In this document: in pieces, positions 2,085 to 50,617 of the stretch
Numbering within the stretch: the first letter of the stretch is position 1
Layout: every line of letters begins with the position of its first letter
The notes under the pieces: generated by a model
The model's database searches: none
Seen by the model: the letters and a program-made list of their open reading frames with translations, nothing else
What the model was told of the DNA's origin: nothing
Virus record (IMG/VR): IMGVR_UViG_3300042860_003408
Location: 1 to 64,000 of that record
Source: a virus
Reading direction: 5' to 3' (one strand)
DNA: 64,000 nt
Translations under genes and position numbers: made by a program

Positions 2085-2090
2085 AATAAC

Positions 2091-2820: not shown

Positions 2821-2886
2821 GGAATATAAATCAAAATAAACAACTAAATATAATATACGTTTTTATACGTAAAACAAACTAATGTT

Positions 2887-11959: not shown

Positions 11960-12069
11960 AAACTCAGTTTAGTATCGACGAGGAAATCTGAAATAAGAAA
12001 GTAGAAGAACTAAACGATTAATTAATAAACTGAGTCGACTAAATATTAATTAAATAAAAAACAAAAATT

Positions 12070-32404: not shown

Positions 32405-35400
32405 ATGACAAGAGAAGACATTAAAAGGGCTTTGCAGGGTGAAGATACGAGATTTGGCGAATATGTTAGGTCTCGTAGCTCTGTTTATGGCCAAGGAAGA
32501 AGCGAACTTGACGAACTAAAACGCAGAAATGAATACGAAGAGGCTAAGCGCAAGCGCCCCTCTAAAGATGAACCTAAGCGCAAAGCGGCTCGCGATGAGT
32601 CAAAAGACGCAGAAGATGGGCAGAAAAAACTGCCACTTGAAAATGAAACTAAAAAAGGAAATGATTATAACTTCTTTGCCGATTCATATAGAACGTTTGT
32701 AGGCGGAAAAAACCAGACAGAAATAGACAATGCTCTAGGAGAGTTAAAATACAACCTTCCTGTGTTTAAGTATTCATCAGATATGCTCTCATCAAAGGAG
32801 GTTCAATCTGATGAGGATTTATATAAGGCAGCTAGGTTTGCAAGGGAAATGCAGTCGAATGCCAAAGCACAGGCTTTATTTCAAAAAAATGAAGAACTGT
32901 CTGCAGAACAAGCCAGGCTTAAATCTCTATATGAAAGTGGAGATAAAAGCGTTTCTGCTGCATTCATAAATAACGAGCCATGGAACCCAGAATCAAAAGG
33001 CAAAACAATATATAGTTTAACTGGGGCTGTGCAGCAAGGAGAAGGGCCTAGTTTTCTTGAGAAAGCAGATATGATGATGGGCGCGTCTCATGGATATGCT
33101 GAGTGGGAGCAAATGAAAGGAATGGTGAGTGGGTTATTTAGAACCGTTGGCACGTCATTGGTAGCAGCCGCTGTTGCTCCTGTTATATCTGTAATGGGCA
33201 AAGTATCTCTAGGAAATGCAGTTGGCAATATACTTGGAGGGCTTACACTTAAAACTGCAGCAGATGTCGCAATTGATAAGCCGGTAGATCTAATATCAAA
33301 TCTATCTGATGCAACTAGATTCTCAATGGGATATGTTCCAGCTGTAGCAGGTGGCCTAATCGGAGCTGGTGTTAATAAGTTTATGCCGTCTGGTGATGTA
33401 AGACAAGGTTATATTGATATAGACGACTCATTGGTTCCAGAAGATACTAAATATGCCTATTCAAAATACAAGGACTTAATAAAAAACTGGTCAAAGGTTG
33501 GTGGAGATTTTGATGGTACAATTCCATCCATAGATGACGTGCTTGACGGAAAGGAGTCTCTACACTCATATACTGGAGAAAAGGTTGGTAAATTTGACTC
33601 GGTATTAGCTAAAAAAACAAAAGATGCACAAGAAAGCATAAAGACTGACTTGAATGATCTTAGGATGTGGGGAGCTCCATCTGAATATGCTACAAAGAAA
33701 GTAGAAGAAAATGACTGGTATTGGGGCAAGATGCTTAATACAAGTGGGATGTCTATGTCTGAGTTTGAAGGGCAGGTCGGCTTAATAGCATTAAATTCTG
33801 CTATATCTTTGGCTACAAAAAAGCCAACAATTGGAACTAAATTATTGTCTTCTCTAGCTCTTACTGGAGCTAACGCTGCTTTTGCTGTAAGAAGTAGAGA
33901 TAGTGAATTCTTTTCTCAGTTTAGTCAAGCCTTTAACGAGAAGCAAGATGCTATACTTGGAGAGAATGCTATATCTAAGATGTCATACGAAGAACTTCTA
34001 TCTCATATATCTGAGCCAAAGGAAACTATGGACAAAGTAATGTCGCAATTTGGGAAGTATGATAAATCTCAAGAGAGACATAAAAGAGAGACGCTAGAGA
34101 TGCTTATTAGAACTGGAATTGTTAAATCAGATATACCTGGAATAAATGAAGCAGCAGTAGCCGCTAGCGATGGCTCGGATGAGCTTGCTAGACAATATAG
34201 GTCTATGATATACTCAGATATGGGTCAAAATGGATTAATGCTAGCTAGTTTAATGCCTATAAAAGGTGGTATTCCAAAGGCCATGCAAGGACTGGCAAAA
34301 TCTACTTCTGATTATTATAAGAATCTATCATTATCGTCTTTTATTAGAAACAATAGAGCAGGAAGAGTTCTTGGAAAAACAGCTCAATTAGCATCAGAAG
34401 TTGGATGGGAGGCGTTTGTAGACGAACCTCTATTTGAAGAAATCCCACAAACAATGATGGATATGAAATTCAAAGAAGGCTCATTAAAAGAAAATGCAGG
34501 AATCTTTGGATCTTATTTGGATAAAAACAAAACCATAAGCACTGGCGCTAAAGCATTATTTGGATTATCTGGAGACGAAAGATATGATAAAAACGCAGAA
34601 TTGCTTGATACCTATTGGTCTACTGTTATGTCTGTAGCGTTTATGGGTGCAGGCAGAAACGTGATATCATCTCCTGCTCATATAAAAGAACTAAATAGAA
34701 GCTTTAATGCTGATAAATTATTTGATTCAGTTATAGAGCCAGGTATTAAGACATCTGCATTTAAAGCAAAGGCGTCTGCATATATAGGAGCTGTTAAGAA
34801 TGGTCAATTTGATTTTGTAATTGAAAACTTAAAAGAACTTCAAAAGAATCCACCAGAAGGATATACTGCAGAAGATATTACTAATGAAATTAAACTGGCT
34901 AAAAGAATTGCATCTATAGCTGATAGTAAATTTGTAAGAGAATATGCCAAGAAATCAGGTGGCTATGGTTCAGAGGACCACTTATTGCTTACATCATTAA
35001 TATCAGACCATGAGAACGCTGCAAGAGAAGGATATCTTGAGAGCAGAACGGCTAATGAAGCTGAGGCTAATCTTCTTGCTAATTTTGACGAGACTACATT
35101 TTCTAAATTAGTTACATCTATAAATACAACTAGGGAGGACGCAGATAAAATAAGCACTGGAGCTGCAATAGGTATTGCCATGCTTAGAAATAAACTAGCT
35201 GCTATTGCTACGATATCAGTGAATGACCCTCTTGAGTCTAAGGCTTCAAAAATAAAAAGCAACTTAATAACGAGAGCCGCATCAGATGATTTAGGAAGTG
35301 TATCTTCTAATTTAATAGATGCATTATTAAATGCTAAATTAATAACAGAGGAGCAGGGGGCTGAACTTCTAAAAATAGAAAACTCTAAAGATCTTAGTGA

Positions 35401-38400
35401 TGCAATTGATGAATTTGTTCCTATTGAGCTTAATGATGATATTAAGGACATGGCTTATGGATTAGTATCTTCATACGGAGCTCAATATGAAGAACATATG
35501 GCATCCATACTTAGAGGAGATCAAACTCTTTACAATAGAGAGAAAGACACAAAAGTAGATAGATTCCATGATGTAGACGAGCTCCTTGATATGCATAGAA
35601 AGTCTCTTGAATCTAATGAAAAAGAGCAGAGAGTTCTAGAGGCTGCTGAAACCAAAAGAGAAGAGAAAAAGAGGGAAGCTAAAACAAAGCCAGAAACAAC
35701 TGTAGTAGCCGAGCCTGTTGTAGAACCTATTGTAGTTGAATTGGAATCATTAGAGCCAAAGTGGGAAATACCATCTGCTCCTGAAATAGTTGAATACGAA
35801 AGCCTAGAGTCTGCTCCAGAAGTAGAGACAGAGCAAGTTCCACCACTAGACGAGACAGATATTCCTCCATTAACTGAGGCCGACTTGAACTCATCAGTAA
35901 ATAGAGCCGAGGAATTGTTAGCAGATGACAACTTCGATCCATTTAGCGATTACGATAAAGAGGAGGAGGCTGCTAAACAGGCCGCAGATAATCAGGAGGA
36001 GCAGGCTCCCACACAAGGAATTACAAATAATGGGACAATTTACCCAGTGCTGGACTTAAGTAAAATAGATACAGATAATTTTATATATGTAACTCACCAA
36101 ACAGATATCGTCGGGCTAGAACAAATTCTTTCAAGAGGGTTTGATATAAGGAATGGGCTAAATGGAACATCATTGTTTGGGAATACAGAATCTATTCAAA
36201 GCCAAATGGACAGTATTAATTCTGGACACGGCCATAGAGGGGCTAGCAGGATGATTGTATTCGCATTCCCTAAATCAAAATTCGGGAATGTAAGGCAGCT
36301 GGATGAAATATCAGATATGCTTATCGATGAGGGAATATTTTCTATTCCCGGCCAATATGTATTTGGAGTATTCACCGAAAATAATAAGCCAATCACACAA
36401 GAAGCTGCTCCACAAAAATCCAAACAAGACGAGCTTAAGGAGAAATTAAACGCTAGACTAGCTCACTTGGCTGATGTTGCCACGGATGTTCTTGGATCTA
36501 AAATGAATGCTACTGGAAAGCAATATTCAAGCAAAGACTTCTTACCAGCAATGACTGGGGTACTAGAGGTTATTATGGAGCTTGGATATACATCATTCGT
36601 AGATGTAGTATCTAATGCATCTGATGCTATGAAAGGAAATGCAGTACTTGCAGGTCTTATTGATAGAATTAGCCCTAAACAATGGAGAGCTGCTTATAAC
36701 TCGGCTGCAGACTTTGCAGAAGGTACACAATCAGAGGAGGAAGTTATAGCCTATTCTAATGATGATGTAAAAGCTATTGTTGCTGGAACATATAAGAAAG
36801 AAGAAGAGATCGATATCAATGAAGATTTAGAAGATCTTAATCAGCCAGAAAAGACTGAGGAAGAAGAGAATAAAGAAGCGTCTAAAGAGATATCAGAAAT
36901 AGTTAAAGGCGCTGCTGCTATATCTATTGCAATGGAGAAAGAGGATTCTTCTGACTTTGTAAATATAGATGACGAGGCTCCTGGCACAATTGACGAGGAT
37001 AAAGTCTCAGTTAGATTTGGTAGATTGCCACATACACTATTTACGTCTAATCCAGAAATAATTAAATGGTTAAAAACTCCAAAAGCCTTAGAAGGCGCTA
37101 CATTTGAAATAGAGATATCTACAATACCTTTTGATAAAGTGCCACAATCTAGAAAGGACGCAGGAGACTATATCCCATTCGACATCAATAATCCTAATTC
37201 ATGGAACGAGGCTGCAATATTTGTTAAAATAAAAGATAAAAATGGCGTAGTTAGACCATTGAATATAAGCTTCCACAACATAGCAGTTAATAGCATGTTT
37301 GAGGATTCTGATGGCAATATGTATCCTAAGTTCAACGAACAGGATATCGCTGATTTAGTTGATTTTAGAAATAAGATAATAGCTTTATATGCAGAAAGCT
37401 TAGCAAATGGTTCTAATAAGGAATTAGTTGTATCTGGCGTATCTATAGGTAGAGCTAAGATAAAATTAAACAGAAAGAATGGTAAGCCGGTACAGAGAAG
37501 CCTGTCTAAAATCAAAGGACTAATAGAAGGCTTTAATGGAGATTTCTCTACTATAAACAACAATACATTAAGCTTAGCTTACGGTAGGGGGTGGAGAGGT
37601 AATTTTACTGTAGTTGGAATTGACGGAGTGATAGGTGATACTGATGAACAGAACTCTGGTAGTATGTTTGCAGTAAAGATTGACCCTGTACTTGGAACTA
37701 AAAGAAAGATAAAATTAAATAAACGTAGATTCTCAGAAGATAAAGATACTGCAGAATTTATATACAAACTACTTATAGACTGGAACATGTCTAAAGGTGA
37801 GTTAGCGTTAGACCGAGACGGAAATGTTGTTTTGGCCGGAGACGGTGCGTCTAATAGGTTAGGTATATCAGCAGAAGGCTTATTGTCTAAGATAGTTAAC
37901 TTTGGAAAAAGAACTCAAATTAATAAGAAGGACTTGCCAATGTTGACCCACCTGCTTCCAAAGCAATTCTACGTAGAAGGCAATTCACTATATCTAGGAG
38001 AAGCTAAGTTTGACATATCAAATCCAGCTGGAATATCTCCTGAAATTAAAGCTCAGATAATAGACTACATTAAGAATAACTTTAACTGGTCTATCAATGC
38101 TCATGACTTATGGAATCAAACTGGAGCTAATAGAAAGGTGGCTGATGTGTTTTCAGGTATCACCGACTACTTCAGATCTAATCCAGAAGCTAAATCAATT
38201 AAGTTCTTTGAAGGAATGGAAATTAAGAGAGAGGACTTAGGTTTAACCTGGGAAGCTTGGATTGTTAAATACGATAAGCTTATATCTGACGTTGCCGATG
38301 ATATCTTTGAATCTCCGTATACATTCTTAAATGATGTAGAGCTTGCAGATAGAATGGATAAGCCAACTATCAAGAAAGTTGCAAAGAAAAAGACAGATGC

Positions 38401-41400
38401 CAAAGAAGCCGCTTTAGAGCCTGTTTCTGACACGCAAAAAGCAGATGTAGTAGAAACATCAACTAACACTCAAAAGTCGCTAGAATCGCCTGAAAATGGC
38501 CTTAAAAGCGATGCTAGCGAGCAAGTTTCTGGTAAGAAGAAATTTAAGAAGAGGACTAGTGGCGATGTAGATAAAATATCTGACTTAGGTGTAAATGCTG
38601 TTGGTCCTACAAGACTGTCAACTAGTCATGCAGAGGAAGATAATTTAACTAATAGCGAACAAGCTTGGGCTAGAAAAAGGATATCATCTCTTATTGAAAT
38701 CAGTGATACTGAAATTGAAATGGAGAACGGTGATATTGCTATGGGTGTAGCTAACATCTTAAAGAATATTATTACACTATTCTCTGGCGCAGAAAGAGGC
38801 ACTGCTTACCACGAAGCATTTCACATTGTGTCTCTTGGGTTAATACCAAGAAATAGAAGGATGATGATATATGACTCAGTTAGGCGTACTATACCATCAT
38901 TGAGTGATGCTACAAATAAGGATATAGAGGAATACTTAGCCGAGGAATTTAGAGTATGGAGAGAGACTAATAAGATCGGCATTAAGATACCGATGCTTAG
39001 ATCTGTATTCAGAAAATTCTCCAACCTATTTACTGGAATGAAGTCTGCAAACAAGTCTGATATAAATAGATTATTTGAGGATATCGAATACGGTATATTT
39101 AAAAACAAAAAAGGTCCAAAGGCTAAATCTGAGCAATCTAAATTCTTTACTAGATTCTATGTAGATGGAGCTGCTAGAACTTTGAAGTCAAAAGGATTCA
39201 ATGCTATCAATACATTGGATATGCAATACGAAGTAGCCAAGGGGTTAGCATTCTCATTCATAGAATTATCTGGAGTTGAAAAAGTTTCTGATATCCGCAA
39301 TATGAGTAAAGACGTACTATATGATAGTATTCTTGCAGAGTATGAATATATGGAAGAAAATGGAATGGAAGATACATTGAAATATAAAATATATGAAGAT
39401 ATATTGGATAAATTTGATGAGGAAATAGTTCCATTAATAAATAAAGAATTATCTTCATTTGGGATAGCCCCAGCTGTATTCGATGTAGATGGAAACGAAA
39501 TAGAGGATAACGATAAAGATATCGTAAGTAACGAGATAGCTAAACATACAGTAGAATCATATAAGGTTCCTAAGTCTGATAATATTCCAATGGAGGTTAA
39601 ATTCTTCTTATGGACTATCCCTCAAAAAGAGAAAAATGCAGACGGTGTTGTTGTAGATAAATTTAACCCATTAACTGGCTTTAAATTATTCTACGACCAG
39701 ACCACGTCGTGGGTTACAGTTGCAAGCGATTTAGGTCATTTGAAATCGTACACCGAGATGAGGAATAAAATATATTCTCTTGGTGTTGTATCTGGTAATT
39801 TATTCTATAGAAGCGTATTAGATAAGCTTGACAATTCTAGCGATAGATTTAAAACAGCATTCTTTGCCGCAGTAAAATGTCATAGACATGACTTTGCGAG
39901 TATAGCATTTACTGGAGACAAAAATGGAAACATGGCTGAAGCCGACAGAAGACTTAGGGTTATAGAGTCAAAGGCTACAACTGCCAAGATAACTAAGCCA
40001 AAAGAATGGGGTGAGAACATGATGTCTATTGGATTTTTATTCTCTGATAGTGTTGATGGGCCAGTATTTAACAAGGCTAATGCCGAGTCTATAATAGCCA
40101 GACATAAAGCACTTGTATCATTTGCCGGTAGATTAACAAATCCACTAGAAGCTGAAAAGATTACTGACGAGCAAATTACTGCTGCTATTAATGAGTATAT
40201 TGATATATTTAATAAAATAGGCATATCTATAAACGATGCAACTATAGATGAGATAATCAAACATTCTTATCCAAATGCATCTAGAAAAAACGCTATAGCT
40301 AGTTTAATCACCCAATCAAAACCAGAACACCCATCATTTGTTCTTACCAACATCATAACAGACCTAGTTAAGAATGATGGAAAGCTTATAGTAAACAGGA
40401 AAGAGAAGGTAGATAGAAAAGAGATCTACAAGTCTCAGAAGTCGACAGGATTTATAGCTATGATGTATTTCAAGGCCAATCCAAATATAACAGAGACCAC
40501 TTCTACCGGGGCTGATGGAGCCAAGGTATATGAGATATCTCTACCAAACTATGTGACAGAGACGGCAGAAAGAATATCTACTGACACTGAATACAGGGAT
40601 AAAGTAATGCAATCTAGTTTTGCTTCAGGCAGGATTGGAGGAGCAGCTTTCGAAGGAGACAGAACTACTGTTGGAGGCTCTATAGTACTAGACCAATTAC
40701 AATCAGGTGAATCAAAGGGATTAAAGGTTAAGACATTCTTGAAATTCTATGAAGATAATTCTGGAGATAAAGGTAGAGATTACTTTGCACTATCTCCTAT
40801 GGAGGATTATATGATGAAAATGGCAGCCACTAATTCTGGATATATGTTATGTCCTACTATGGCTGATAAGAAATCGTGGTACATGTTTGCTGGCATTAAA
40901 ATGCCGTCATTTAGCGTATCTAAACAAGAAGGAACTCCTATTGCTGTTGATATGAATTCATTGAAAGATGGGCTAGTTAGACAATCAATCACATTCCCTA
41001 CAAAAACAGTAGCTATATTCAATGGATACTTTGAGGCAGAATATCTTGCAATGCAGGATGCTTGGAGTGCATGGAAGGTTGCAATGGGTAATAAAAATAA
41101 ACTAGAACAAACATATCACTACGGCGGATTCTCACAAAGAGGTGCAAATAAATATACCACAAAAGGCAAATGGAATTCAGGACTTGGTAATGGTATGAAA
41201 TTTAGGCATTTCGATGAAATTTCTATTGACATAAAAGGCGACGGCTCATTTGTAAATCTAAATGAATATCAAGAGGAATTGATAGACCAATATGGAGTAA
41301 TTAATGGGATGACTAGATTCTTTGAGGAAATGGATAGTAAAATATTCAATGCATCAAATGAAACTAAATTCCAAATAATGAATGCCACCTTGGCTAATTC

Positions 41401-44400
41401 AATATCTAGAGAATTAAAGTGGCTTGTTAAGAATGGCGCTATAACTGTACAGCACAAAAAGAATGGCGTATTCTATAAAAATAAGAAGCTAGATAAATCT
41501 ATATTTAAAGATACTAGAGCTTACTTCATCAAACAATCTAATTTAAACTCAAAAGAATCTCTTGTTAGTGACTATGCCGACACGTCTGCTATTTACAATA
41601 TGGTTGCTGAGCATATGGTGAACACATCCATATCTACAATAGAATTTGAAAAGATATTCTCAAAAGACCCTGCATTCCATAAAGATCCTGATGCTAAGAT
41701 AAAAAGGTTATCTTCTATACTATCAACAGGTACTCCATGTTTATCTGAAACAGGAAGATCCACATTTGTGTCTGCTGAGTTAAATGACAATGAAATACCT
41801 TCTCCTAATTTATCTGAGATAAAATCAAGGATGATTGCTGCTCATGTAAACGAAAGACATGGCGATGAATTAAATATGACTTTTAATGAAATATTAGAGG
41901 CTATTAATTCTGGAAATATGGACGAGATAAATAAGTTATCAGACATCAAAATGATAATGAATATAGTTGATGCTCAGACTGCTGGATATAATAAAGTAAA
42001 TGAAACAGACGCTTCTGTGTTCATATCTCCTGTTATGTATAGAGATATACTTAGAAAATTAGGAAGATGGAATGAAGACTTAAATGAGGCATTTGATTTA
42101 TTGGAATCAGAAGATATGTCTTGGATGGAAGATTCTGCTAAATATCTAAAAGTGATGGAGCTTGCTCTTAATCCGCTTAAGATGATATATTATGGAGATA
42201 AGTTCAGTAATGGGTTAAATATTCCAAAACTAGACAAGATGGCAATGTTCTGTTTATTTAGATCTGTCGCTACAGGTGCAAATAAAGCTCTATATGAAAG
42301 GATGAACAATCCAGAAGATGGTGCAAGCAAAATAGATATGGTCGCATTCTCATCTGCTGTTAAGTCTGGGAATAATAATCCAATAGACTTCTTTGACAAA
42401 GACGGTAATGTATCTAACCTTGATAAGTTTACAGAAGAAATTCAGCACTTTGAATTCCTTAGACATCAGCTTGAAACTGAAGCTCACGAGGAAGAGGAGG
42501 TTGGATTGGCAACTCAGGTTCAAAAAGTTGCAATGTCCAATATAGTGTCAGATAAAGTTTATTCAAATATAACAATAGGCGGAAATAAAGGTGCTACAGG
42601 AAGACAGTTAATAGAGGAATGGTCAAATGCATTAACAGAGATATCTAATAGGGGTAGAAATGATGTAGAGAATGAATTAGGAATTAAATACGAAGGCGGA
42701 GTATTGACTTTCGATAAAAAGAAATTATACGGATTCTTGCATTCAGAGGCAATCAAGTCTAATATGACTGATGATGTCTACGAGACCCTTATGAAGGCAG
42801 CTGAGCCAAATAGCAGGATAACACTTCAGGCCATGGCTGATAGAGATTGGATTGAGAGCAAACTTGTTTCATTTATTATGAAGAAGACTCTTGATGTCAA
42901 TACCCCAGGTGGTGCATTTATTCAGATGTCTACATTTGGTATAAATACACTTACAGACAGCATAACTAGCGAAGGATATAAGCTTAATGGTGGAAGAAAG
43001 TTAAATTACATGAATGCTGACGGAAGCATGGATTGTGTCGTTTCTCTATCATTATTTAAAGATGTTTTGCCAGAGGATGTTAAGTTGATGTCTCCAGTTA
43101 AGCAAAGAGATTGGCTTTTAATGCATAATATAATCGGTCCTGACTCAGATCCTGCTGCATTAGGATATCGTATTCCAACTCAAGGTATGTCATCTGTATC
43201 ATCATTAAAGATTATAGATGTTATCCCTAAGATAATTGGAGATACTATAATTCTTCCAACAGAATTCACTGCGCTCACAGGCTCTGACTTTGACGTTGAC
43301 AAGTTGTATTTAGCTAGATATAACTATGCTAAAAACCCAGCTGGTCGATTCGAAAAGGTTGAGTTTGATGACAACAAGAAAAGTGAGAAGAATCCAGAGA
43401 AGTCTAAATGGCAAGTAAATTCAAATGCTGCTATCCAAAATAGATTGTTGGATGTAATGATGGCTGCAATAACAGAGCCATCTTCTATACATGAAACAAG
43501 GCTTCCATTAGATGCTACTACTAGTGTAATAAAGGACGATATTCTTCCAGACATAGACTCAGTTACTGGCACTGGAGAAAAGCGAGGAGCTCTTATGTTT
43601 ACATCACCTTCATATCAAACAGATAAGAAAGTTGAGTATTCTACAGGCAAGAAGAATTTGGGTATAATGGCACTTGCTAATACAAACCATATTTATACGC
43701 AGATGACTAATCTGACTATAAATCCAAAACAAAGGACAGCCGCTAAACACGGAATATTTGAACTTGGAGGAATATATGGAGCTGACGGAATGCGTATATT
43801 GGACTGGCTATCTGCCATGATTAATGCTCACGTTGACGTTGCCAAAGATCCATATATCATACGACTAGGTGTTAATGAACATACTGTTAATATGGTTGCA
43901 TTCTTACTTAGAGCTGGTATTGGCGGAAACGCATTCTACTTCTTATCACAACCATCTTTAAAAGAGGCTTATGCTGAGGTTGAAGAATTTAATGGCAAAT
44001 ATGAAGTAAATAAAGATTCTGTTAAGAAGTTGCATGAAGTAATAAAGGACAAGCTACAGAAATATAGAGCTATGGCTGCTAGAATTGATGGTGGTAAAAA
44101 CGCTCAATACGTAGAATCTTTATTCGTTGAAGATAAATATGGTAGACGTGATATGCCGACAGGAGATGTACTTAATAGTAGATCTAAATTAAAGTCTGGC
44201 CTAAATAAAGACTTGTCTAATTTTGATTATCTATTGCACCAGATATTGGTAATGGAAACTTATTTAGAATTACTTCCATATTCTAACGAATTATCTGAGC
44301 TTGTCAAATACTCTCAAATTGAGACCAAAAAACAAGGTAAATCATTTATAGCAAATAATGAGTTTATTTCAAAAGTAAATTCATTGATATTGGATGATGA

Positions 44401-47400
44401 TAATGGAACGTCTGTATTTAGTGGCGTAAGAAACTATTATGAATCTACACCATTGATGGCAAGGCTTAGAAATAGCTCTGGGTTAATAGTAGGAATAAGT
44501 CGTGGTTTATTATTTAGAACCTCTAGACAAGTATTATCTATTCTTAACAAAGTAAATATACTTGCAGGAAGAGAAGGTTTTGACAATAGCAAATTCATGC
44601 ATGGCGTATCAAGGTATGTCGAGACGGCAATTAAGGATTCTTTTTATAGAAAATATGCAGAACAAAACGATATAGATATAAATAGCTTGTTCTTTGGAGA
44701 AGACACTGTCGCTAAGGAATTATTCCATATCAAGTCTGCTATAAATAACGGTCATTTACCTGGATATGAAAACAATGTCTTCTTGAAGGTATTGTCATAT
44801 ACTATGCATAGTAAATCAGAGGAGTCTTATCCAGACCATGTTACTATAGACTCATCTGCGAAGGACGATAAAAATATTCAAGAGAAGATAAAGTACTATT
44901 TTTCTGAATTATTAAATCCAATACTTGAAGATGAATCGCAAGAAGGCCTTAGTGAACAAGAAATAAGCGCACTTAAATCTAGAAATAAAGATAGGGTTAT
45001 GCTTAAGGATTTTGCTAAGAGATTCATACTATATCAATTTTATAGCACTGGTGACAATAGCGCATTAAATTACGTTAAATTATCTGAGGATGATAGAATT
45101 TCACTGGAGATTAATTCAGGGTTAGTAGATGCTAATACTGGAGCACCAATCAAGATTGCACTATACGACTTTATAGATGATGTGTTGACGGAACTGAATG
45201 AATTATCATATGAACATACTCCTGGAGTAGCGCTTCAAAATGATGTTAAATTCTTGGAAGATTTGTTCATTAGTAGATGGTGGGATAATGAACTAGTTCC
45301 AACTACCACTGCATATAAAGTAAGAAAAGGTCAATTTGATGAAGATGGGCATCCATTAGTAGATCAGAAACCTAAGAAAATGTCGACTAAAAAGATGCTT
45401 GGTATTGAATATGAATTGGAATTTATAGACACTGCTGCTAGACCTATTGGATCTACATCTGATGGAAAACATCCAGTATTTAAGCCATTCGTTAAGATAA
45501 TCAAGACAGGCACCAATGGAAGACAGTTTGAAATACTATATAAATACATAGGAAACTCGACAAGGTCTAATGCTAAAGGCGATGTGTCTATTAAACCAGT
45601 ATATGTTGCTGTTGACAAAAAAGGTAGCAAAGCATCTGGTCTTGCACTTATAGAGTCTAATTCAAAGACTTCTGTAATAAAGACAAACGAACTTCCACAG
45701 TCAAATATAAATTCATCTATATTCTCGAAAGAGGCTGGATTTGATAAAGTAAGCTGGTTTGATATGTTTATGGGTCTTGAAGATAAGTTCGTTGAGAGCT
45801 TAGGTGCTAGCACAGTAGATAAAGCAGTGACTAATGCAATAGATAACAATAGTTATTCTATGTCTTATTTAGATAATGCTATAGAAGATGCTGGAATTAC
45901 AGATAGCGCAAGGATAGCCTCAATGAGGGAGGAATTCGCTAGAGGCATTTTAAGCCGTTTTAACGAACTCAATTTACCGGATAATACAATTGCCCAGGAA
46001 GATAGAGAAAGTGCCTTAGAAGAGCTTAAAACAAGCGCAGAGGCCTATCTAGGACAATTTATTAGGAAAGTAGAAATGCAACCTAGCAATAATGCTAGAA
46101 GCATTAACATATACGCTGGTACTGGAGAAAATGCAAACTTAAGTAATCTCGCAATAAGACCATTTACTTTGCCAACAGGATCCTCTAGGCTGAATATGAT
46201 TAAGGGAGATATCAGCTTTACTAGCGTAGAGCAAGCGTTCCAATTAGCCAAATACACGTATACTGGAAATGTAAGAGATGATGGTAGCTGGCAGCCGCAA
46301 ATGCTGTCTGGTGGAGGCTTTGGGAATGAGATGTCAAAAGAGGATGATGAGTTCAATTGGAAACTGGCTGGACAAATACAGAACAGTAAAAACCCTGCTG
46401 AGGCCAAAGCCCTGGGAAGACAATTTAAACATTTGGACGTAGATAGATGGAATAAAGCCTCTTCTTCTATCATGAAAGAGTTATTGCTAGAATCATTTAA
46501 ACAAAACCCTGATGCACTTCAAGAATTATTAGCAACTGGGAACGCAATACTTACTCATACGCAAGATAAAGGCAAGTGGAGTACTGAATTTCCTCGACTT
46601 CTTATGGAGGTTAGAGATGAATTAAACGCAGATCTTACTACAGAAGCAGAAGGCGAACAGGATTTAACTAATATTAACGAATCTAGCACGCTTACTGGAT
46701 ATCAAGGAAGAAAGTCTGATGTAGCAGACAATAGAGAATATAATTTCTATTCCACATCAGAAGAGGAGGCCAGGGATTATGGAAGTAATGTTTCTAAAAA
46801 ACGAATAAGCCTAAATAACTTCTTATTTAAAACAGAATTACTACCCAATGGGACGTCTGTCTATACAGAGGCCTATGATAAGATATATAAAGCATTTCAG
46901 GAAAAATATGGATCTCCATTTGATATATTGAATAATGGAACACCAGAAAAAATAGAGCTTATGAATAAGTTCTTTGAAATGGTAAGAGAGGCTGGATTTA
47001 GTGGATATACAGAGATAAGAAAGAATAATAATTTTAGTCAATCAGATAATAGGTATATTGTTACGTTTAATCAAAAGTCTACTGCTAAATCAATTTCGAT
47101 TGCATCTGAATTCACTAATCATTCTGGTGGCGCTTATGGTGCTGACACCTTCTGGGATCAAATTGGTAGAGAATATGGTGTAACTGATAATAGGCATTAC
47201 AGACAAGAAGATAATAAGTCTTTATCTCAAGCGCTTAGAAATAAGAAAGTTGAAGCCACTGTTCTTACAACGGAACAGATGGATAAAGCTAGAACTGAGA
47301 TAGAGAAATTGCTAGGCAAGAAATACCCGGATACAAAAGAAGGCAACCTGCAAGTAAGAAATTATTATCAAGTGTCTAATGCAGATGCTGTATTTGCAAT

Positions 47401-50400
47401 AGCAAAAATATCTGGAGATGCCAAATTTAATTCTGGAACTGTGTTCGGCGGAACAAACACTGCAGTTCAATTAGGAGTTCAATTAGGAAAGCCAGTATAT
47501 GTATGGGATGTAACCTCTGAGCAATGGATGCGGTTTGTTCCGGAAATGCGAAAAGATGATAAGATTGTAGGAAAGTTTGTCCCAACAAGCACTCCTATGC
47601 TCACAAAGAACTTCGCTGGCGTTGGTACTAGAGATATTGAAAACTATAATACTTTAAATAAGACTACTAATCAGTGGGAGCCAAGAAAAGAGTATTTAGG
47701 AATAGAGAAAGAAAATGCCGCAAAACAGGCTATTAGAGATGTGTTTGAAAATACATTTAAAAATCAAGAAAACACTACAGCTAGTGAAGAAGAGCATGAG
47801 TCTACTATAAAATCTATAGAGGGAAAACAAGAATCGTTAAGTAAGCAAGACCAGGAAACTGTTAATGAAGTATTTAATGATGGAGGAAAACCTAAGATAC
47901 TTATAGCCAGCGAGACGTCAGACCCAGTATTCCATGTTAAGAAAATAAAAGAAATTGTAGCCAACAGAAAGACTAATGGGGTAAATGCAATGTATCTTAT
48001 AACAAAACATGACGGACTCCCATTGAAAGAATTGGCTGAATTAAAAATTCCTAAATTCTATCACTTCAGCATAACTACTCTTGGCGGCACTAAGTATGAG
48101 CCAGGCGTTATGAAATACGACGACTTATTAGATAGGATTGAGACATTTATAAAAGAAGGCCTTTTAAATCCAAATCTAATAACAGTTAGGATTGACCCTA
48201 TCATTCCAGGAGTTACTAATTTTGATGACGTAGAGCGTGTAATAAAGAGAGCGTCAGAAATGGGAATTAGGCAGATTAAGTTCAGTGTAATGGATAGCTA
48301 TTCAGGATCTAAAAACGATAGATTTATAGTAGCTAAAATGAAGGAACTTGGCTACGATTTTGCAGCATATAAAACAAATGACAATATTAAATTTAGCGCT
48401 AAACAGGAGATAATAGATGAATTAAGTGTTAAAATGCGCGATCTTTGTAAGAAATATGGAATACGACAATTAAGTTCTTGTGCTGAAAAAGTAAACGTAG
48501 ACGGAGTTCAAAAATTAGGTTGTTTAAATGTTCAATCTATAAACGCTGCGATGGGAAGGACTGATGTTACTCATGTCCAAGGAAATCAAAGACAAGATTG
48601 TAGTTGCTACGGGAATAAGGTGGATGCATTAAGATATAATGATAAATGCGCAAGTAGCTGTGTATATTGCTATGCAGGACATAACAGTGTTGTTTCGCTT
48701 AAGTATTATAATGAGGATGGTAGTCTAAAGGTAAATGATTTTACGAAGACATCAAATACTGAACAAGCAATTATCGAGCCGGAAGTGACACAAGAAAGAT
48801 TCACTGAATTTGGGACTACGTATGCTTTTGGATTTGTTGACGGAAAAATGACTTCGGCAATGTATCAGCAAGGAAATGGCGAATTTAATAATATGAATAT
48901 GTTATCTGCAGAGAAGGCATATTCTAGATTGAAATCAAAAAGTGAAAATGCTGTCGTTAGTGAAGTAACGCCTGATACTCCATCAGAAGCTGATATAAAT
49001 CTATTTGGAAAAGATATTGACTTAAGTAAGATTGGTATTCCTTATCAATTAAACGATGAGCAAGAAGCTGCATTGAAAGCAATAGAAGCATGGGTTAAAG
49101 ATAAAACAATAACTACCCCATTCTCGCTATTAGGCTCTGCTGGTTCTGGTAAAACATCCATAACTAGAGTACTTATAAATGCACTTAGCAATGCTGAGAT
49201 TACATATCAATTATTAGCTCCAACACATAGAGCTAAAGGTGTATTATCTAGAGCTACTGGCAAGAAAGCTAAAACATATCATGCTTACTTTCAATTAGTC
49301 CCAGAGGCCAGAGAGGTTGGTATGAAGCTTGAGTTTGGCGGAGCTACTAATTATGAATCTAATGTAGATCTATATATAATAGATGAGGTTTCTTTAATCT
49401 CAGATAAGAGTGTAGATGAAATACTTAAAGTTGCGGAAGCTACTGGAGCTAAAGTATTGTTTATTGGAGATCATGCTCAGTTATATCCTGTTGGAAATAC
49501 TGACGCAAAAGGAATGCCTAAACAATCAATTGGGTTAGAATCTCCAACCAGCATAGTTCTTAATAAGGTTATGCGTGTTGCGAATGGAAATCCATTAGCA
49601 GATGTATTAAGTATTATGAGAATGTATCAGGCTCCTGGGCTTATGAATATCAATGGAACTGAATATAATTTTACCGACCAGTCTAAAGCAATCTTCTCTA
49701 AGAGAGATGCATTTAACGACCAAGGCGGCGTTGTATTTGTAGGCGAAGCTGATAGAGCGAAAGCAGTAGAGCAATTTGTTGATATGTTCTTTACGTCAGA
49801 AGACTATTCTAAGGATGTTAATTTCGCTAAGATATTGGCATTTAGAAATGATGTAATAGACTCAATGAATGCCTATGTTAGAGCTAAATTAGGAAAGAAA
49901 GGATTGATTGAGGTTGGAGAACAAGTCATAGGATATAGTCAAATAAAGGCTGGAAAGGTAGACTTGGTTGCGAACGACGATGAATATGTTGTTGACAGCA
50001 TAGGAGCTCCTAGAGAGATTACGTCATACGCAGTGCCTGGAGTAACATTGAAAGTTGTTCCAATAGAAATACGAATGACTACTGGTGCTTCCGCTGGAGG
50101 CGTATTTAATTTATTAACTGATTATAGCGAAGAGAATATGCTTGCAATACGAGCGGCTATTCTTAAGCGGAAACAGGAGATAAGTAATATGGACTATCAA
50201 GAAAAAAGAGAGGCTAATAGAAACTTCTTTATTGCATTGACTAAAGATTTCATTACGCTTAAACCTATAAAAAATAGCTTAACTGATAACGAAAATGCGT
50301 CAAATAATTTAAAGGATAGAACTATTGGATTTACATACGCATCTACAGTACACAAAGCTCAAGGCGGAGAATATCAAAACGTTCTTGTTCTTGATTCGGA

Positions 50401-50617
50401 CCTCAGAGGAATAGATAAAAACTTTGATGGATTAATTTACAGGAAAGCATTGTATACGGCTGTATCTAGAGCTCGTAGAACTGCTACTGTAATTACTAAT
50501 ACTAAAAAATTAAACTCAGAGAAAAAACAAGTTTCAGCTGATGGAACTAAAATACCTGAGTCGTTTAAACCAAATAATAGTCTGATTGGAAATGAAAGAC
50601 CGTCAGATAAATGTTAA
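32405..50617 (+). CDS. Giant virion RNA polymerase polyprotein (6070 aa) with accessory domains
   Basis: 'GYRIPTQG' and the catalytic loop 'GSDFDVDKL' (DxDxD at 43286-43300); zincin HEAFH (38810); NADAR (~46100-46625); SLOG-like (~47110-47760); DUF1848-like (~47890-48750); SF1B helicase (~49050-50500). Confidence 0.88.
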   Translation: MTREDIKRALQGEDTRFGEYVRSRSSVYGQGRSELDELKRRNEYEEAKRKRPSKDEPKRKAARDESKDAEDGQKKLPLENETKKGNDYNFFADSYRTFVGGKNQTEIDNALGELKYNLPVFKYSSDMLSSKEVQSDEDLYKAARFAREMQSNAKAQALFQKNEELSAEQARLKSLYESGDKSVSAAFINNEPWNPESKGKTIYSLTGAVQQGEGPSFLEKADMMMGASHGYAEWEQMKGMVSGLFRTVGTSLVAAAVAPVISVMGKVSLGNAVGNILGGLTLKTAADVAIDKPVDLISNLSDATRFSMGYVPAVAGGLIGAGVNKFMPSGDVRQGYIDIDDSLVPEDTKYAYSKYKDLIKNWSKVGGDFDGTIPSIDDVLDGKESLHSYTGEKVGKFDSVLAKKTKDAQESIKTDLNDLRMWGAPSEYATKKVEENDWYWGKMLNTSGMSMSEFEGQVGLIALNSAISLATKKPTIGTKLLSSLALTGANAAFAVRSRDSEFFSQFSQAFNEKQDAILGENAISKMSYEELLSHISEPKETMDKVMSQFGKYDKSQERHKRETLEMLIRTGIVKSDIPGINEAAVAASDGSDELARQYRSMIYSDMGQNGLMLASLMPIKGGIPKAMQGLAKSTSDYYKNLSLSSFIRNNRAGRVLGKTAQLASEVGWEAFVDEPLFEEIPQTMMDMKFKEGSLKENAGIFGSYLDKNKTISTGAKALFGLSGDERYDKNAELLDTYWSTVMSVAFMGAGRNVISSPAHIKELNRSFNADKLFDSVIEPGIKTSAFKAKASAYIGAVKNGQFDFVIENLKELQKNPPEGYTAEDITNEIKLAKRIASIADSKFVREYAKKSGGYGSEDHLLLTSLISDHENAAREGYLESRTANEAEANLLANFDETTFSKLVTSINTTREDADKISTGAAIGIAMLRNKLAAIATISVNDPLESKASKIKSNLITRAASDDLGSVSSNLIDALLNAKLITEEQGAELLKIENSKDLSDAIDEFVPIELNDDIKDMAYGLVSSYGAQYEEHMASILRGDQTLYNREKDTKVDRFHDVDELLDMHRKSLESNEKEQRVLEAAETKREEKKREAKTKPETTVVAEPVVEPIVVELESLEPKWEIPSAPEIVEYESLESAPEVETEQVPPLDETDIPPLTEADLNSSVNRAEELLADDNFDPFSDYDKEEEAAKQAADNQEEQAPTQGITNNGTIYPVLDLSKIDTDNFIYVTHQTDIVGLEQILSRGFDIRNGLNGTSLFGNTESIQSQMDSINSGHGHRGASRMIVFAFPKSKFGNVRQLDEISDMLIDEGIFSIPGQYVFGVFTENNKPITQEAAPQKSKQDELKEKLNARLAHLADVATDVLGSKMNATGKQYSSKDFLPAMTGVLEVIMELGYTSFVDVVSNASDAMKGNAVLAGLIDRISPKQWRAAYNSAADFAEGTQSEEEVIAYSNDDVKAIVAGTYKKEEEIDINEDLEDLNQPEKTEEEENKEASKEISEIVKGAAAISIAMEKEDSSDFVNIDDEAPGTIDEDKVSVRFGRLPHTLFTSNPEIIKWLKTPKALEGATFEIEISTIPFDKVPQSRKDAGDYIPFDINNPNSWNEAAIFVKIKDKNGVVRPLNISFHNIAVNSMFEDSDGNMYPKFNEQDIADLVDFRNKIIALYAESLANGSNKELVVSGVSIGRAKIKLNRKNGKPVQRSLSKIKGLIEGFNGDFSTINNNTLSLAYGRGWRGNFTVVGIDGVIGDTDEQNSGSMFAVKIDPVLGTKRKIKLNKRRFSEDKDTAEFIYKLLIDWNMSKGELALDRDGNVVLAGDGASNRLGISAEGLLSKIVNFGKRTQINKKDLPMLTHLLPKQFYVEGNSLYLGEAKFDISNPAGISPEIKAQIIDYIKNNFNWSINAHDLWNQTGANRKVADVFSGITDYFRSNPEAKSIKFFEGMEIKREDLGLTWEAWIVKYDKLISDVADDIFESPYTFLNDVELADRMDKPTIKKVAKKKTDAKEAALEPVSDTQKADVVETSTNTQKSLESPENGLKSDASEQVSGKKKFKKRTSGDVDKISDLGVNAVGPTRLSTSHAEEDNLTNSEQAWARKRISSLIEISDTEIEMENGDIAMGVANILKNIITLFSGAERGTAYHEAFHIVSLGLIPRNRRMMIYDSVRRTIPSLSDATNKDIEEYLAEEFRVWRETNKIGIKIPMLRSVFRKFSNLFTGMKSANKSDINRLFEDIEYGIFKNKKGPKAKSEQSKFFTRFYVDGAARTLKSKGFNAINTLDMQYEVAKGLAFSFIELSGVEKVSDIRNMSKDVLYDSILAEYEYMEENGMEDTLKYKIYEDILDKFDEEIVPLINKELSSFGIAPAVFDVDGNEIEDNDKDIVSNEIAKHTVESYKVPKSDNIPMEVKFFLWTIPQKEKNADGVVVDKFNPLTGFKLFYDQTTSWVTVASDLGHLKSYTEMRNKIYSLGVVSGNLFYRSVLDKLDNSSDRFKTAFFAAVKCHRHDFASIAFTGDKNGNMAEADRRLRVIESKATTAKITKPKEWGENMMSIGFLFSDSVDGPVFNKANAESIIARHKALVSFAGRLTNPLEAEKITDEQITAAINEYIDIFNKIGISINDATIDEIIKHSYPNASRKNAIASLITQSKPEHPSFVLTNIITDLVKNDGKLIVNRKEKVDRKEIYKSQKSTGFIAMMYFKANPNITETTSTGADGAKVYEISLPNYVTETAERISTDTEYRDKVMQSSFASGRIGGAAFEGDRTTVGGSIVLDQLQSGESKGLKVKTFLKFYEDNSGDKGRDYFALSPMEDYMMKMAATNSGYMLCPTMADKKSWYMFAGIKMPSFSVSKQEGTPIAVDMNSLKDGLVRQSITFPTKTVAIFNGYFEAEYLAMQDAWSAWKVAMGNKNKLEQTYHYGGFSQRGANKYTTKGKWNSGLGNGMKFRHFDEISIDIKGDGSFVNLNEYQEELIDQYGVINGMTRFFEEMDSKIFNASNETKFQIMNATLANSISRELKWLVKNGAITVQHKKNGVFYKNKKLDKSIFKDTRAYFIKQSNLNSKESLVSDYADTSAIYNMVAEHMVNTSISTIEFEKIFSKDPAFHKDPDAKIKRLSSILSTGTPCLSETGRSTFVSAELNDNEIPSPNLSEIKSRMIAAHVNERHGDELNMTFNEILEAINSGNMDEINKLSDIKMIMNIVDAQTAGYNKVNETDASVFISPVMYRDILRKLGRWNEDLNEAFDLLESEDMSWMEDSAKYLKVMELALNPLKMIYYGDKFSNGLNIPKLDKMAMFCLFRSVATGANKALYERMNNPEDGASKIDMVAFSSAVKSGNNNPIDFFDKDGNVSNLDKFTEEIQHFEFLRHQLETEAHEEEEVGLATQVQKVAMSNIVSDKVYSNITIGGNKGATGRQLIEEWSNALTEISNRGRNDVENELGIKYEGGVLTFDKKKLYGFLHSEAIKSNMTDDVYETLMKAAEPNSRITLQAMADRDWIESKLVSFIMKKTLDVNTPGGAFIQMSTFGINTLTDSITSEGYKLNGGRKLNYMNADGSMDCVVSLSLFKDVLPEDVKLMSPVKQRDWLLMHNIIGPDSDPAALGYRIPTQGMSSVSSLKIIDVIPKIIGDTIILPTEFTALTGSDFDVDKLYLARYNYAKNPAGRFEKVEFDDNKKSEKNPEKSKWQVNSNAAIQNRLLDVMMAAITEPSSIHETRLPLDATTSVIKDDILPDIDSVTGTGEKRGALMFTSPSYQTDKKVEYSTGKKNLGIMALANTNHIYTQMTNLTINPKQRTAAKHGIFELGGIYGADGMRILDWLSAMINAHVDVAKDPYIIRLGVNEHTVNMVAFLLRAGIGGNAFYFLSQPSLKEAYAEVEEFNGKYEVNKDSVKKLHEVIKDKLQKYRAMAARIDGGKNAQYVESLFVEDKYGRRDMPTGDVLNSRSKLKSGLNKDLSNFDYLLHQILVMETYLELLPYSNELSELVKYSQIETKKQGKSFIANNEFISKVNSLILDDDNGTSVFSGVRNYYESTPLMARLRNSSGLIVGISRGLLFRTSRQVLSILNKVNILAGREGFDNSKFMHGVSRYVETAIKDSFYRKYAEQNDIDINSLFFGEDTVAKELFHIKSAINNGHLPGYENNVFLKVLSYTMHSKSEESYPDHVTIDSSAKDDKNIQEKIKYYFSELLNPILEDESQEGLSEQEISALKSRNKDRVMLKDFAKRFILYQFYSTGDNSALNYVKLSEDDRISLEINSGLVDANTGAPIKIALYDFIDDVLTELNELSYEHTPGVALQNDVKFLEDLFISRWWDNELVPTTTAYKVRKGQFDEDGHPLVDQKPKKMSTKKMLGIEYELEFIDTAARPIGSTSDGKHPVFKPFVKIIKTGTNGRQFEILYKYIGNSTRSNAKGDVSIKPVYVAVDKKGSKASGLALIESNSKTSVIKTNELPQSNINSSIFSKEAGFDKVSWFDMFMGLEDKFVESLGASTVDKAVTNAIDNNSYSMSYLDNAIEDAGITDSARIASMREEFARGILSRFNELNLPDNTIAQEDRESALEELKTSAEAYLGQFIRKVEMQPSNNARSINIYAGTGENANLSNLAIRPFTLPTGSSRLNMIKGDISFTSVEQAFQLAKYTYTGNVRDDGSWQPQMLSGGGFGNEMSKEDDEFNWKLAGQIQNSKNPAEAKALGRQFKHLDVDRWNKASSSIMKELLLESFKQNPDALQELLATGNAILTHTQDKGKWSTEFPRLLMEVRDELNADLTTEAEGEQDLTNINESSTLTGYQGRKSDVADNREYNFYSTSEEEARDYGSNVSKKRISLNNFLFKTELLPNGTSVYTEAYDKIYKAFQEKYGSPFDILNNGTPEKIELMNKFFEMVREAGFSGYTEIRKNNNFSQSDNRYIVTFNQKSTAKSISIASEFTNHSGGAYGADTFWDQIGREYGVTDNRHYRQEDNKSLSQALRNKKVEATVLTTEQMDKARTEIEKLLGKKYPDTKEGNLQVRNYYQVSNADAVFAIAKISGDAKFNSGTVFGGTNTAVQLGVQLGKPVYVWDVTSEQWMRFVPEMRKDDKIVGKFVPTSTPMLTKNFAGVGTRDIENYNTLNKTTNQWEPRKEYLGIEKENAAKQAIRDVFENTFKNQENTTASEEEHESTIKSIEGKQESLSKQDQETVNEVFNDGGKPKILIASETSDPVFHVKKIKEIVANRKTNGVNAMYLITKHDGLPLKELAELKIPKFYHFSITTLGGTKYEPGVMKYDDLLDRIETFIKEGLLNPNLITVRIDPIIPGVTNFDDVERVIKRASEMGIRQIKFSVMDSYSGSKNDRFIVAKMKELGYDFAAYKTNDNIKFSAKQEIIDELSVKMRDLCKKYGIRQLSSCAEKVNVDGVQKLGCLNVQSINAAMGRTDVTHVQGNQRQDCSCYGNKVDALRYNDKCASSCVYCYAGHNSVVSLKYYNEDGSLKVNDFTKTSNTEQAIIEPEVTQERFTEFGTTYAFGFVDGKMTSAMYQQGNGEFNNMNMLSAEKAYSRLKSKSENAVVSEVTPDTPSEADINLFGKDIDLSKIGIPYQLNDEQEAALKAIEAWVKDKTITTPFSLLGSAGSGKTSITRVLINALSNAEITYQLLAPTHRAKGVLSRATGKKAKTYHAYFQLVPEAREVGMKLEFGGATNYESNVDLYIIDEVSLISDKSVDEILKVAEATGAKVLFIGDHAQLYPVGNTDAKGMPKQSIGLESPTSIVLNKVMRVANGNPLADVLSIMRMYQAPGLMNINGTEYNFTDQSKAIFSKRDAFNDQGGVVFVGEADRAKAVEQFVDMFFTSEDYSKDVNFAKILAFRNDVIDSMNAYVRAKLGKKGLIEVGEQVIGYSQIKAGKVDLVANDDEYVVDSIGAPREITSYAVPGVTLKVVPIEIRMTTGASAGGVFNLLTDYSEENMLAIRAAILKRKQEISNMDYQEKREANRNFFIALTKDFITLKPIKNSLTDNENASNNLKDRTIGFTYASTVHKAQGGEYQNVLVLDSDLRGIDKNFDGLIYRKALYTAVSRARRTATVITNTKKLNSEKKQVSADGTKIPESFKPNNSLIGNERPSDKC
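38410..38510. repeat. Dispersed phased inverted-repeat element (inside the RNAP polyprotein gene)
   Basis: Left arm CGCTTTAGAGCCTGTTTCTGAC; reverse complement of the right arm is CGCTTTTAAGGCCATTTTCAGGCGATTCTAGCGACTTTT; core span 96 bp. Confidence 0.7.
45945..46036. repeat. Dispersed phased inverted-repeat element (inside the RNAP polyprotein gene)
   Basis: Left arm GCATTTTAAGCCGTTTTAACGAACTC; reverse complement of the right arm is GCTTGTTTTAAGCTCTTCTAAGGCACTTTC; core span 84 bp. Confidence 0.75.

Follow-up and report, generated by a model that had tools for sequence, protein, structure and literature searches.

Candidate ADP-ribose/NAD counter-defence modules at the C-terminus of a giant crAss-type virion RNA polymerase polyprotein

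Why does a phage RNA polymerase of the crAss type carry a chain of enzyme domains behind its catalytic core? The question is raised by IMG/VR virus record IMGVR_UViG_3300042860_003408, of which positions 1 to 64,000 were analysed (hereafter the window, meaning this whole stretch of 64,000 nucleotides). One giant open reading frame (ORF) in the window encodes an RNA polymerase (RNAP) polyprotein that continues into a NADAR domain, an ADP-ribosyltransferase (ART)-like domain, a SLOG domain, a DUF1848 domain and a helicase. The domains can be identified, they lie in one contiguous ORF, they keep their conserved catalytic motifs, and they have been gained, lost and shuffled among relatives. In the reading that we favour, with modest confidence, the last ~1,500 residues are beads-on-a-string accessory enzymes that enter the cell together with the polymerase and serve early ADP-ribose/NAD counter-defence and template access. 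The features of the gene are given below, with the basis of each assignment in brackets.

32405..50617, + strand: giant ORF, virion RNA polymerase polyprotein, 6,070 aa (ORF list, translation)
38810..38824, + strand: HEAFH at aa 2136, a HExxH or zincin-type motif (motif only)
41453..43333, + strand: RNA polymerase core, including DFDVD at 43286-43300 (phmmer to PDB 6VR4, motif)
46082..48775, + strand: four-module cassette NADAR-ART-SLOG-DUF1848, aa 4560-5457 (replaced by 23 aa in the sister protein P0002)
46130..46567, + strand: NADAR domain with E4609, K4616 and the phage AdfN-type H4718 (PF08719, 8bau, alignment with T4 gp30.3)
46670..47104, + strand: ADP-ribosyltransferase-fold domain with conserved Y-Q-G, R4777 and D4881 (fold, 31-sequence alignment)
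47105..47779, + strand: SLOG (DprA/YpsA-like) domain with C-terminal extension, GGAYGAD at 47126 (phrog_768)
47939..48676, + strand: DUF1848, radical-SAM-like barrel, CX3CX2C at 48647-48670 and four more conserved Cys (PF08902, model)
48776..49036, + strand: small conserved pre-helicase segment and linker, common to P0002 (comparison with P0002)
49037..50506, + strand: superfamily 1B (SF1B) helicase, Dda/RecD2-like, Walker A GSGKT at 49142 (Pfam, PHROGs, motif)

The ORF list and the translation (table 11) gave one open frame of 6,070 codons without an internal stop. A sequence-only reading of this DNA had described a frame running uninterrupted from the RNAP core through the modules, which was borne out; the Ser/Thr/Glu-rich linkers that it placed between the modules are visible in the translation, and its positions for HEAFH (38810) and DFDVD (43286) are both exact. 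It had let the C-terminal chain begin at 45900, and the first ~180 nt of that range (45900-46081) still encode conserved polymerase protein. The same reading had named an assembly chimera as a finding that would refute it, that is, a polymerase gene joined to unrelated genes, and the exact module order of the window was indeed absent from every other protein or contig examined. However, in each of four other sequencing runs not flagged as possible sources (X7-X10, from four coded studies), one Logan contig spans the polymerase-to-NADAR junction at ~46082 and another the DUF1848-to-helicase junction at ~48775, both without a difference from the window; these sequences are assemblies rather than raw reads, and the four runs may stem from one sampling campaign. 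The G+C content is even over the gene (0.34-0.39) and the same modules occur in the same giant frame in relatives. The bridging contigs contradict a chimera, which we regard as extremely improbable and have rejected. The virus record itself is a single linear molecule of 85,865 bp, estimated to be 83% complete, and sequence words of the region were present in lake-water or freshwater metagenomes, with 24 runs listed and at least half of the words in 14 of those.

The identification of the polymerase as crAss-type is solid. The core (aa 3017-3643) matched phi14:2 gp66 (6vr4_A, residues 821-1390; E 1.6e-43) in a phmmer search against the PDB and contains the catalytic motif DFDxD as DFDVD at aa 3628. 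Among the Pfam, PHROGs, NCBIfam and PDB sequence searches only this last one recognised the polymerase: the first ~4,560 residues (window 32405-46081) gave no Pfam, PHROGs or NCBIfam profile match, and none of the three returned a family match around HEAFH. Present profile libraries overlook this polymerase lineage despite its genuine crAss-type core. The nearest named phages by tblastn were members of the Crassvirales, family Suoliviridae, namely cr118_1 (35.7% identity over the core), cr272_1 and cr130_1, whose database entries give the homologous giant ORFs no annotation beyond 'exonuclease V', 'DNA helicase', 'DprA-like' or 'hypothetical protein'. A megablast search of the region against 50,697 phage records gave no match. 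The homologous giant ORFs of cr272_1 (stretch L001, from NC_055903; 1-18597) and cr130_1 (stretch L002, from NC_055901; 1-8307) contain 37 and 31 in-frame TAG codons, respectively, and no other internal stops in these stretches, which fits TAG reassignment.

The first of the C-terminal modules, NADAR (aa 4576-4721), scored 49.7 bits against PF08719 (gathering cut-off 35.1) and matched the solved NADAR structure 8bau_A (E 6.3e-5), while PF08010 gave no match to the window at E <= 0.1. In an alignment of seven sequences, comprising the window NADAR, T4 gp30.3 and five crAss-type NADARs, the columns E44, K51 and H153 are invariant, with the His located in the last strand. Glu and Lys are described as catalytic in NADAR proteins, and AdfN-like phage NADARs as carrying His in place of the last-strand Glu (PMC11543638, PMC11825919). 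T4 gp30.3 (AdfN) is reported to remove ADP-ribose from phage DNA and to be necessary and sufficient against DarTG1 (PMC11825919). In T4 (sequence L049), alt (1455-3503) and 30.3 (6308-6766) lie ~3 kb apart on the same strand, a loose parallel to the adjacent NADAR and ART domains of the window; Alt is annotated in the T4 record as a capsid-borne ART injected with the DNA and is cited as a packaged ART in PMC5512222.

The module that follows (aa 4756-4900) had no hidden Markov model (HMM) match in Pfam, PHROGs or NCBIfam and no sequence match in the PDB, where searches with the ART-like, DUF1848 and SLOG modules returned chance-level rows (best E 0.12-0.43); PF18760 (ART-PolyVal) likewise had no match in the window at E <= 0.1. 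Its AlphaFold2 model (predicted local distance difference test score, pLDDT, 86.5; predicted template modelling score, pTM, 0.81) was compared with the PDB using VIA, which placed AcrIF11 first (6kyf, Z 7.8, root-mean-square deviation 4.7, 116 residues aligned; 8dwq, Z 5.3) and a cyanophage pre-ejectosome protein second (9k3a_B residues 1419-1594, Z 7.3). Behind these ranked RES-type toxins as well as ParT toxins, catalytic domains of diphtheria toxin and PARPs, the last three groups making up most of the list. Foldseek found no PDB match at E <= 0.001 (best E 7.9e-3); against the viral predicted structures of BFVD, its top match was a 'PolyVal ADP-Ribosyltransferase' (E 5.3e-5) with several ART-PolyVal-like or polyvalent proteins below it, and an N4-like roseophage virion RNA polymerase (vRNAP) at rank 17 (E 0.031). 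Because of the VIA and BFVD matches, an ART fold is accepted for this modelled domain.

Relatives of the ART-like module were sought among 1.84 billion representative proteins, yielding 45 at E <= 1e-3 (13 of them at <= 1e-10), which are either multidomain proteins of 1,000-5,200 aa or small ones (109-365 aa); a profile search aimed at stand-alone relatives added 8 new proteins. Pfam analysis of 21 of the 45 showed ART-PolyVal adjoining the module in five and NADAR directly before it in one, and PF18760 reached the module itself in a single protein, below threshold (P0149, 17.5 bits vs 31.2). Across 31 sequences with 28-40% identity, the family has 11 invariant positions including Y-Q-G, R22 and Y-G, and keeps Y-Q-G, N-Y-x-T and D126 rather than the canonical H/R ... 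E, with a near-invariant Asp ahead of the penultimate strand. AcrIF11 has a non-canonical H-F-H-D set with a catalytic Asp, according to a preprint (10.1101/2024.08.26.609590), indicating that an Asp variant can be active.

The SLOG module was recognised through phrog_768 ('DprA-like', E 1.4e-10, aa 4901-5032); it had no SLOG-family Pfam match at E <= 1, and its homologues matched Pfam only below threshold, to DNA_processg_A, cpYpsA, LDcluster4 (SLOG cluster 4), YAcAr and Nuc_deoxyrib_tr. In the ESM Atlas the first cluster scored 0.94 and carried DNA_processg_A on 11% of its members. The module and its extension recur in the 3,819-aa vRNAP of Klebsiella phage Pylas (residues ~983-1203, nt 12001-12663; 36% identity, pairwise E 7e-42), which has the motifs GGAxGxD and GGT in common with the window, and, with weaker similarity, in the polymerase of Alteromonas phage PT15-A5 (residues ~1004-1258, nt 9001-9765). 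Both are N4-like enzymes, the two Schitoviridae among the matches listed, and in each the module is inserted near residue 1,000, immediately ahead of where the catalytic domain is expected. According to PMC13434306, the virion polymerases of the N4 and crAss types differ in structure and have only their ejection in common. In Vibrio phage VH-8 the module is a stand-alone gene of 222 aa.

DUF1848 was identified by PF08902 (aa 5179-5424, 67 bits vs a cut-off of 30.5; 71 bits in the genome search). Its motif CX3CX2C reads CASSCVYC at aa 5415 and is conserved in 12 of 12 aligned homologues; counting the four further cysteines as well, conservation ranges from 12/12 to 13/14, and a stretch GG-T-x-x-E-P-G is invariant. 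The six best VIA matches of the model were five enzymes of the radical S-adenosylmethionine (SAM) class and a DUF512 protein (not classified), at Z 9.0-9.5; they include PFL-activating enzyme, NifB, Mmp10 and spore photoproduct lyase (4fhc, Z 9.1, 201 residues aligned). The alignments all begin past the N-terminal cluster loop of the partner, and NCBIfam added a weak match to rSAM_PA0069 (E 0.003). Compared with radical-SAM enzymes, the domain is alike in having the CX3CX2C motif and a partial TIM barrel, and differs in that the cysteine motif is atypically at the C-terminal end of the domain, not at the N-terminus. A sequence search of the PDB found no solved DUF1848 structure, and a literature search no functional study. 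We therefore call the domain radical-SAM-like, with the cluster motif shifted to the C-terminus, and nothing more specific; the polyprotein would give DUF1848 a first functional context.

The presence of spore photoproduct lyase among the best matches (also Foldseek E ~1e-3) bears on an explanation offered from the sequence alone, a kit that would repair or protect the incoming genome or clear lesions ahead of the polymerase. In such a genome-care kit, the helicase, a lyase-like radical-SAM enzyme and NADAR would clear the template, and for a lake-water virion the lesions could be UV photoproducts. The phage comes from lake water, and several homologues are labelled 'DNA repair photolyase' by the Joint Genome Institute (JGI), which speaks for such a role. 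However, the lyase does not stand out among the matches from other radical-SAM enzymes or even from generic TIM barrels (Z 8.5), DUF1848 is also found in faecal phages (cr272_1) and in 119 of the 120 listed giant relatives described below, where sunlight damage is irrelevant, and NADAR, ART and SLOG point to ADP-ribose chemistry. Repair of UV damage or spore photoproducts was downgraded because the faecal relatives carry the same DUF1848 domain, and we consider the genome-care explanation quite unlikely.

The last module, the helicase (aa 5545-6034), exceeded the Pfam cut-offs of AAA_30 (89.1 vs 27 bits), AAA_19 (70.2 vs 25.1), UvrD_C_2 (44.9 vs 27.4) and PIF1 (26.7 vs 25.9) and matched phrog_325 'Dda-like' (E 2.9e-58). 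Walker A (GSGKT) lies at aa 5580; the other helicase motifs were read by eye from the translation. Taken together, the five folds proposed in the sequence-only reading survived tests with AlphaFold2, structure comparison and profiles: NADAR, SLOG-like and radical-SAM-like DUF1848 were upheld by PF08719, by phrog_768 and by PF08902 with CX3CX2C and the VIA matches, respectively, and the ART-like assignment by fold only. Its 'RecD-like' helicase kept the helicase fold and lost the RecD-specific name, since the RecD2 equivalog TIGR01448 in NCBIfam scored 99.6 bits, far under its cut-off of 500, and SF1B Dda/RecD2-like is the better description.

How the modules are distributed was examined in relatives of the C-terminal region, in a search limited to giant proteins of which the best 120 of 932 were listed; module content was determined by local phmmer with the window modules and, for the helicase, from a precomputed Pfam list. 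One of these proteins, the sister protein P0002, is 85-93% identical to the window protein wherever the two are colinear and has 23 residues in place of aa 4560-5457, with clean in-frame junctions. Such an insertion/deletion difference in a near-identical sister is expected for dispensable, host-specific accessories. The architectures found behind the polymerase, and on individual IMG/VR contigs, are given below.

118 of the 120 giant relatives: helicase - DUF7831 - DUF1848 - SLOG - NADAR, after the polymerase
P0003: SLOG - DUF1848 - NADAR
P0002: helicase only
IMG/VR contigs L008 and L009: DUF1848 ... NADAR - ART-like - SLOG
IMG/VR contig L019: DUF1848 - NADAR - helicase
IMG/VR contig L031: NADAR - DUF7831

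The order in the 118 proteins is nearly the reverse of that in the window. Their helicase comes from the Pfam list, and Walker A was located upstream in the two that were checked; by phmmer and jackhmmer the helicase of the window was found only in P0002 among the 120. DUF1848 was detected by phmmer in 119 of them and by Pfam in crAss-like cr272_1 from pig faeces. The ART-like module was found by phmmer in none of the 120 and occurred only in L008 and L009. DUF7831 (PF25176), present in 118 of the 120 (for example, P0004 aa 5250-5395), follows NADAR in cr272_1 (15601-16053), cr130_1 (~7190-7620) and L031 (~3505-3909), and in the first two it fills the slot of the ART-like domain of the window. 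The exchange of DUF7831 and ART in the slot beside NADAR, the varied orders and the cassette difference between sisters indicate that the modules behave as independent beads that co-occur and are reshuffled, gained or lost. The combination had been judged unusual from the sequence alone; in fact, NADAR, SLOG and DUF1848 occur together, alongside helicase families on the Pfam list, in 118 of the 120 listed relatives in other orders, and NADAR-ART-SLOG recurs in two IMG/VR contigs.

Might the modules then be mostly decayed passengers or structural spacers with no enzymatic role? A near-identical sister phage does without the cassette, the ART-like domain is without the canonical His or Arg, and the N-terminal region of the N4 vRNAP is likewise described as beads on a string (PMC13434306). 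Against this, catalytic or cofactor motifs of NADAR, SLOG, DUF1848 and the helicase are conserved in diverged relatives and the ART-like family retains its 11 invariant positions, making this explanation very unlikely in our view.

In the mechanism that we favour, the C-terminal modules would be carried in the capsid, enter the cell along with the polymerase and act at the first moments of infection. The AdfN-type NADAR would strip ADP-ribose from guanines of phage DNA modified by DarT1-like host toxins; the AcrIF11/ART-PolyVal-like domain may ADP-ribosylate a host target; the SLOG domain might bind or cleave ADP-ribose-derived nucleotides such as immune signals; DUF1848 could carry out a radical-SAM-type reaction on nucleic acid; and the SF1B helicase would open DNA or strip proteins off it. 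Overall, the evidence favours ADP-ribose/NAD counter-defence over general lesion repair. Homologous RNAP-associated proteins have been detected as cargo in crAss001 virions by mass spectrometry, and they are ejected, thought to be partly unfolded as they pass (PMC10172136). Phage NADAR, SLOG and Macro domains are described as co-occurring, sometimes among virion genes, and as proposed to be packaged for early use against ADP-ribose-based immunity (PMC9503650). Delivery at entry fits because of the crAss001 cargo, these published packaged ADP-ribose-processing domains and the SLOG module in two N4-like vRNAPs. For the window phage we infer the packaging and ejection of the C-terminal part, any cleavage by the zincin-type motif, the enzymatic activities and their targets.

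Several points weigh against this mechanism. Packaging and activity of crAss-like C-terminal modules, in the window phage or its relatives, are argued by analogy. In the ART-like family an invariant Gln stands where canonical ARTs have His or Arg, so that the module may lack NAD binding or be inactive; it reaches no ART HMM, and no VIA match of its model attains Z 8, values that the tool rates as middling. A T4-type phage NADAR is reported not to rescue DarT1 toxicity outside infection (PMC11125620, PMC11825919), and the substrate of the window NADAR is therefore uncertain. DUF1848 is the weakest link. Its model has a pLDDT of 70.5, with the Cys-rich tail below 50, and generic TIM barrels follow directly behind the radical-SAM enzymes in the VIA ranking. 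A [4Fe-4S] enzyme would moreover lose its cluster on unfolding during ejection, and the cluster would be exposed to the oxygen of lake water, so that an Fe-S enzyme seems ill suited both to being stored in a virion exposed to oxygen and to passing in an unfolded state; because of both, DUF1848 may act elsewhere or have to be reloaded inside the host cell.

The same considerations lend some weight to a late role, in which the polyprotein is produced together with the structural genes and its modules, possibly released by the zincin, modify, repair or process new phage DNA in the producer cell before packaging and are not delivered onward. The gene lies in a late or structural block with another giant ORF behind it, a HExxH motif precedes the modules, ejection is thought to require partial unfolding (PMC10172136), and a metabolically active infected cell would make it easier to employ an Fe-S enzyme sensitive to oxygen and a helicase dependent on ATP. 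A late role has no obvious need for fusion to a polymerase, however, as a stand-alone SLOG gene exists in VH-8, and the same types of module have repeatedly been fused, in several orders, to proteins known to be packaged and ejected, including a second, unrelated vRNAP family. We regard a late role as unlikely, if less so than the genome-care kit.

Counter-defence cargo remains the reading that we favour, and a broader proposal can be attached to it tentatively, which we hold to be doubtful and only slightly more probable than the late role. The unrelated injected vRNAPs, the crAss-like two-barrel and the N4-like single-subunit enzymes, might be interchangeable chassis for a common pool of in-frame anti-immunity modules. 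The 2.7-kb NADAR-ART-SLOG-DUF1848 block might then be a mobile cassette gained and lost as a unit, in which a DUF1848 radical-SAM-type enzyme and a Gln-variant ART would, within the first seconds of infection, target ADP-ribose-modified DNA or immune signals derived from NAD.

The general concept, in the form of polyvalent proteins and packaged ADP-ribose-processing domains, is already published, and the helicase and DprA-like parts can be recognised from existing annotations of reference crAss-like genomes. The literature search found no paper that joins a crAss-like RNA polymerase with NADAR or DUF1848. Nor did we find in print a recurrent DUF1848 in polyproteins of crAss-type polymerases, an ART family with the Gln variant, sister phages that differ in having the cassette or a SLOG module common to two unrelated virion polymerases; figures or supplements of PMC7886860 and PMC9503650 may show some of these. 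By its legend, Figure 3 of PMC7886860 draws the recognised domains of the transcription block, and the add-ons may be drawn there. If the modules are delivered with the polymerase, the phage would have ready-made enzymes against ADP-ribosylation or NAD-based immunity that act before phage gene expression. An AdfN-type NADAR outside T4-like phages, a Gln-variant ART family resembling AcrIF11 (a small domain) and a SLOG module that N4-like virion polymerases also carry are concrete, testable candidates, and the presence and absence of the cassette in two ~90% identical phages is a natural experiment on its function.

Around the gene, a second giant ORF (50638-57669, + strand, 2,343 aa) starts 20 nt past the polymerase gene and matches no Pfam family at E <= 0.01. 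Its position is that of the giant 'hypothetical protein' after the polymerase gene in cr118_1 and cr272_1, and it is presumably another RNAP-associated cargo protein. Directly past these two giant + strand ORFs, at window ~58000, GC skew and AT skew flip sign, which suggests a switch in gene orientation. Three minus-strand ORFs of 161-162 aa (34963-35451, 45364-45849 and 50850-51338) lie inside the giant + strand genes and are probably chance frames.

Among known systems, phi14:2 gp66 (6VR4) shares with the window protein the two-barrel RNAP core with DFDxD, the crAss001 homologues are among the virion cargo proteins gp47/gp49/gp50, and the gene lies in a block of giant ORFs past the structural genes. 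The window gene differs in fusing several proteins' worth of sequence into 6,070 aa, whereas the 6VR4 chain has 2,194 residues, and in having ~1,500 aa of enzyme modules behind the polymerase, unlike gp66 or the crAss001 cargo. The N4-like (Schitoviridae) vRNAPs of Pylas and PT15-A5 also hold the SLOG module and its extension inside a giant injected RNAP, but theirs is an unrelated single-subunit, T7-like enzyme in which SLOG precedes the catalytic domain instead of following it at the C-terminus. T4 AdfN (gp30.3) has the E, K and His columns in common with the window NADAR at 23% identity; AdfN and Alt are separate proteins in T4, while the window has NADAR and ART domains adjacent in one polymerase-linked polypeptide, and AdfN is not reported as packaged in the main text of PMC11825919, where the word 'packaged' is absent. 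AcrIF11 (6KYF, 8DWQ) resembles the ART-like module in being a small ART with a variable helical insert and Asp as the acidic residue, yet sequence identity is ~11% and the invariant Gln of the module replaces the first His of AcrIF11. The viral NAD+/ADP-ribose domain networks (Iyer et al., 2022; PMC9503650) include SLOG fused or linked with NADAR or Macro, whereas the main text is without 'crAss' or 'virion RNA polymerase' and its passages on these domains give no DUF1848 or helicase partner. Polyvalent proteins (Iyer et al., 2017; PMC5512222) are described as single polypeptides that combine many enzymatic domains and are delivered together with the DNA, typically including ARTs and peptidases of the zincin type. 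NADAR, SLOG, DUF1848, crAss and radical SAM are absent from the main text of that paper. The window ORF is similar in joining five enzyme modules and a HExxH motif in a polypeptide that would likewise be delivered, and differs in that its chassis is a crAss-type RNAP.

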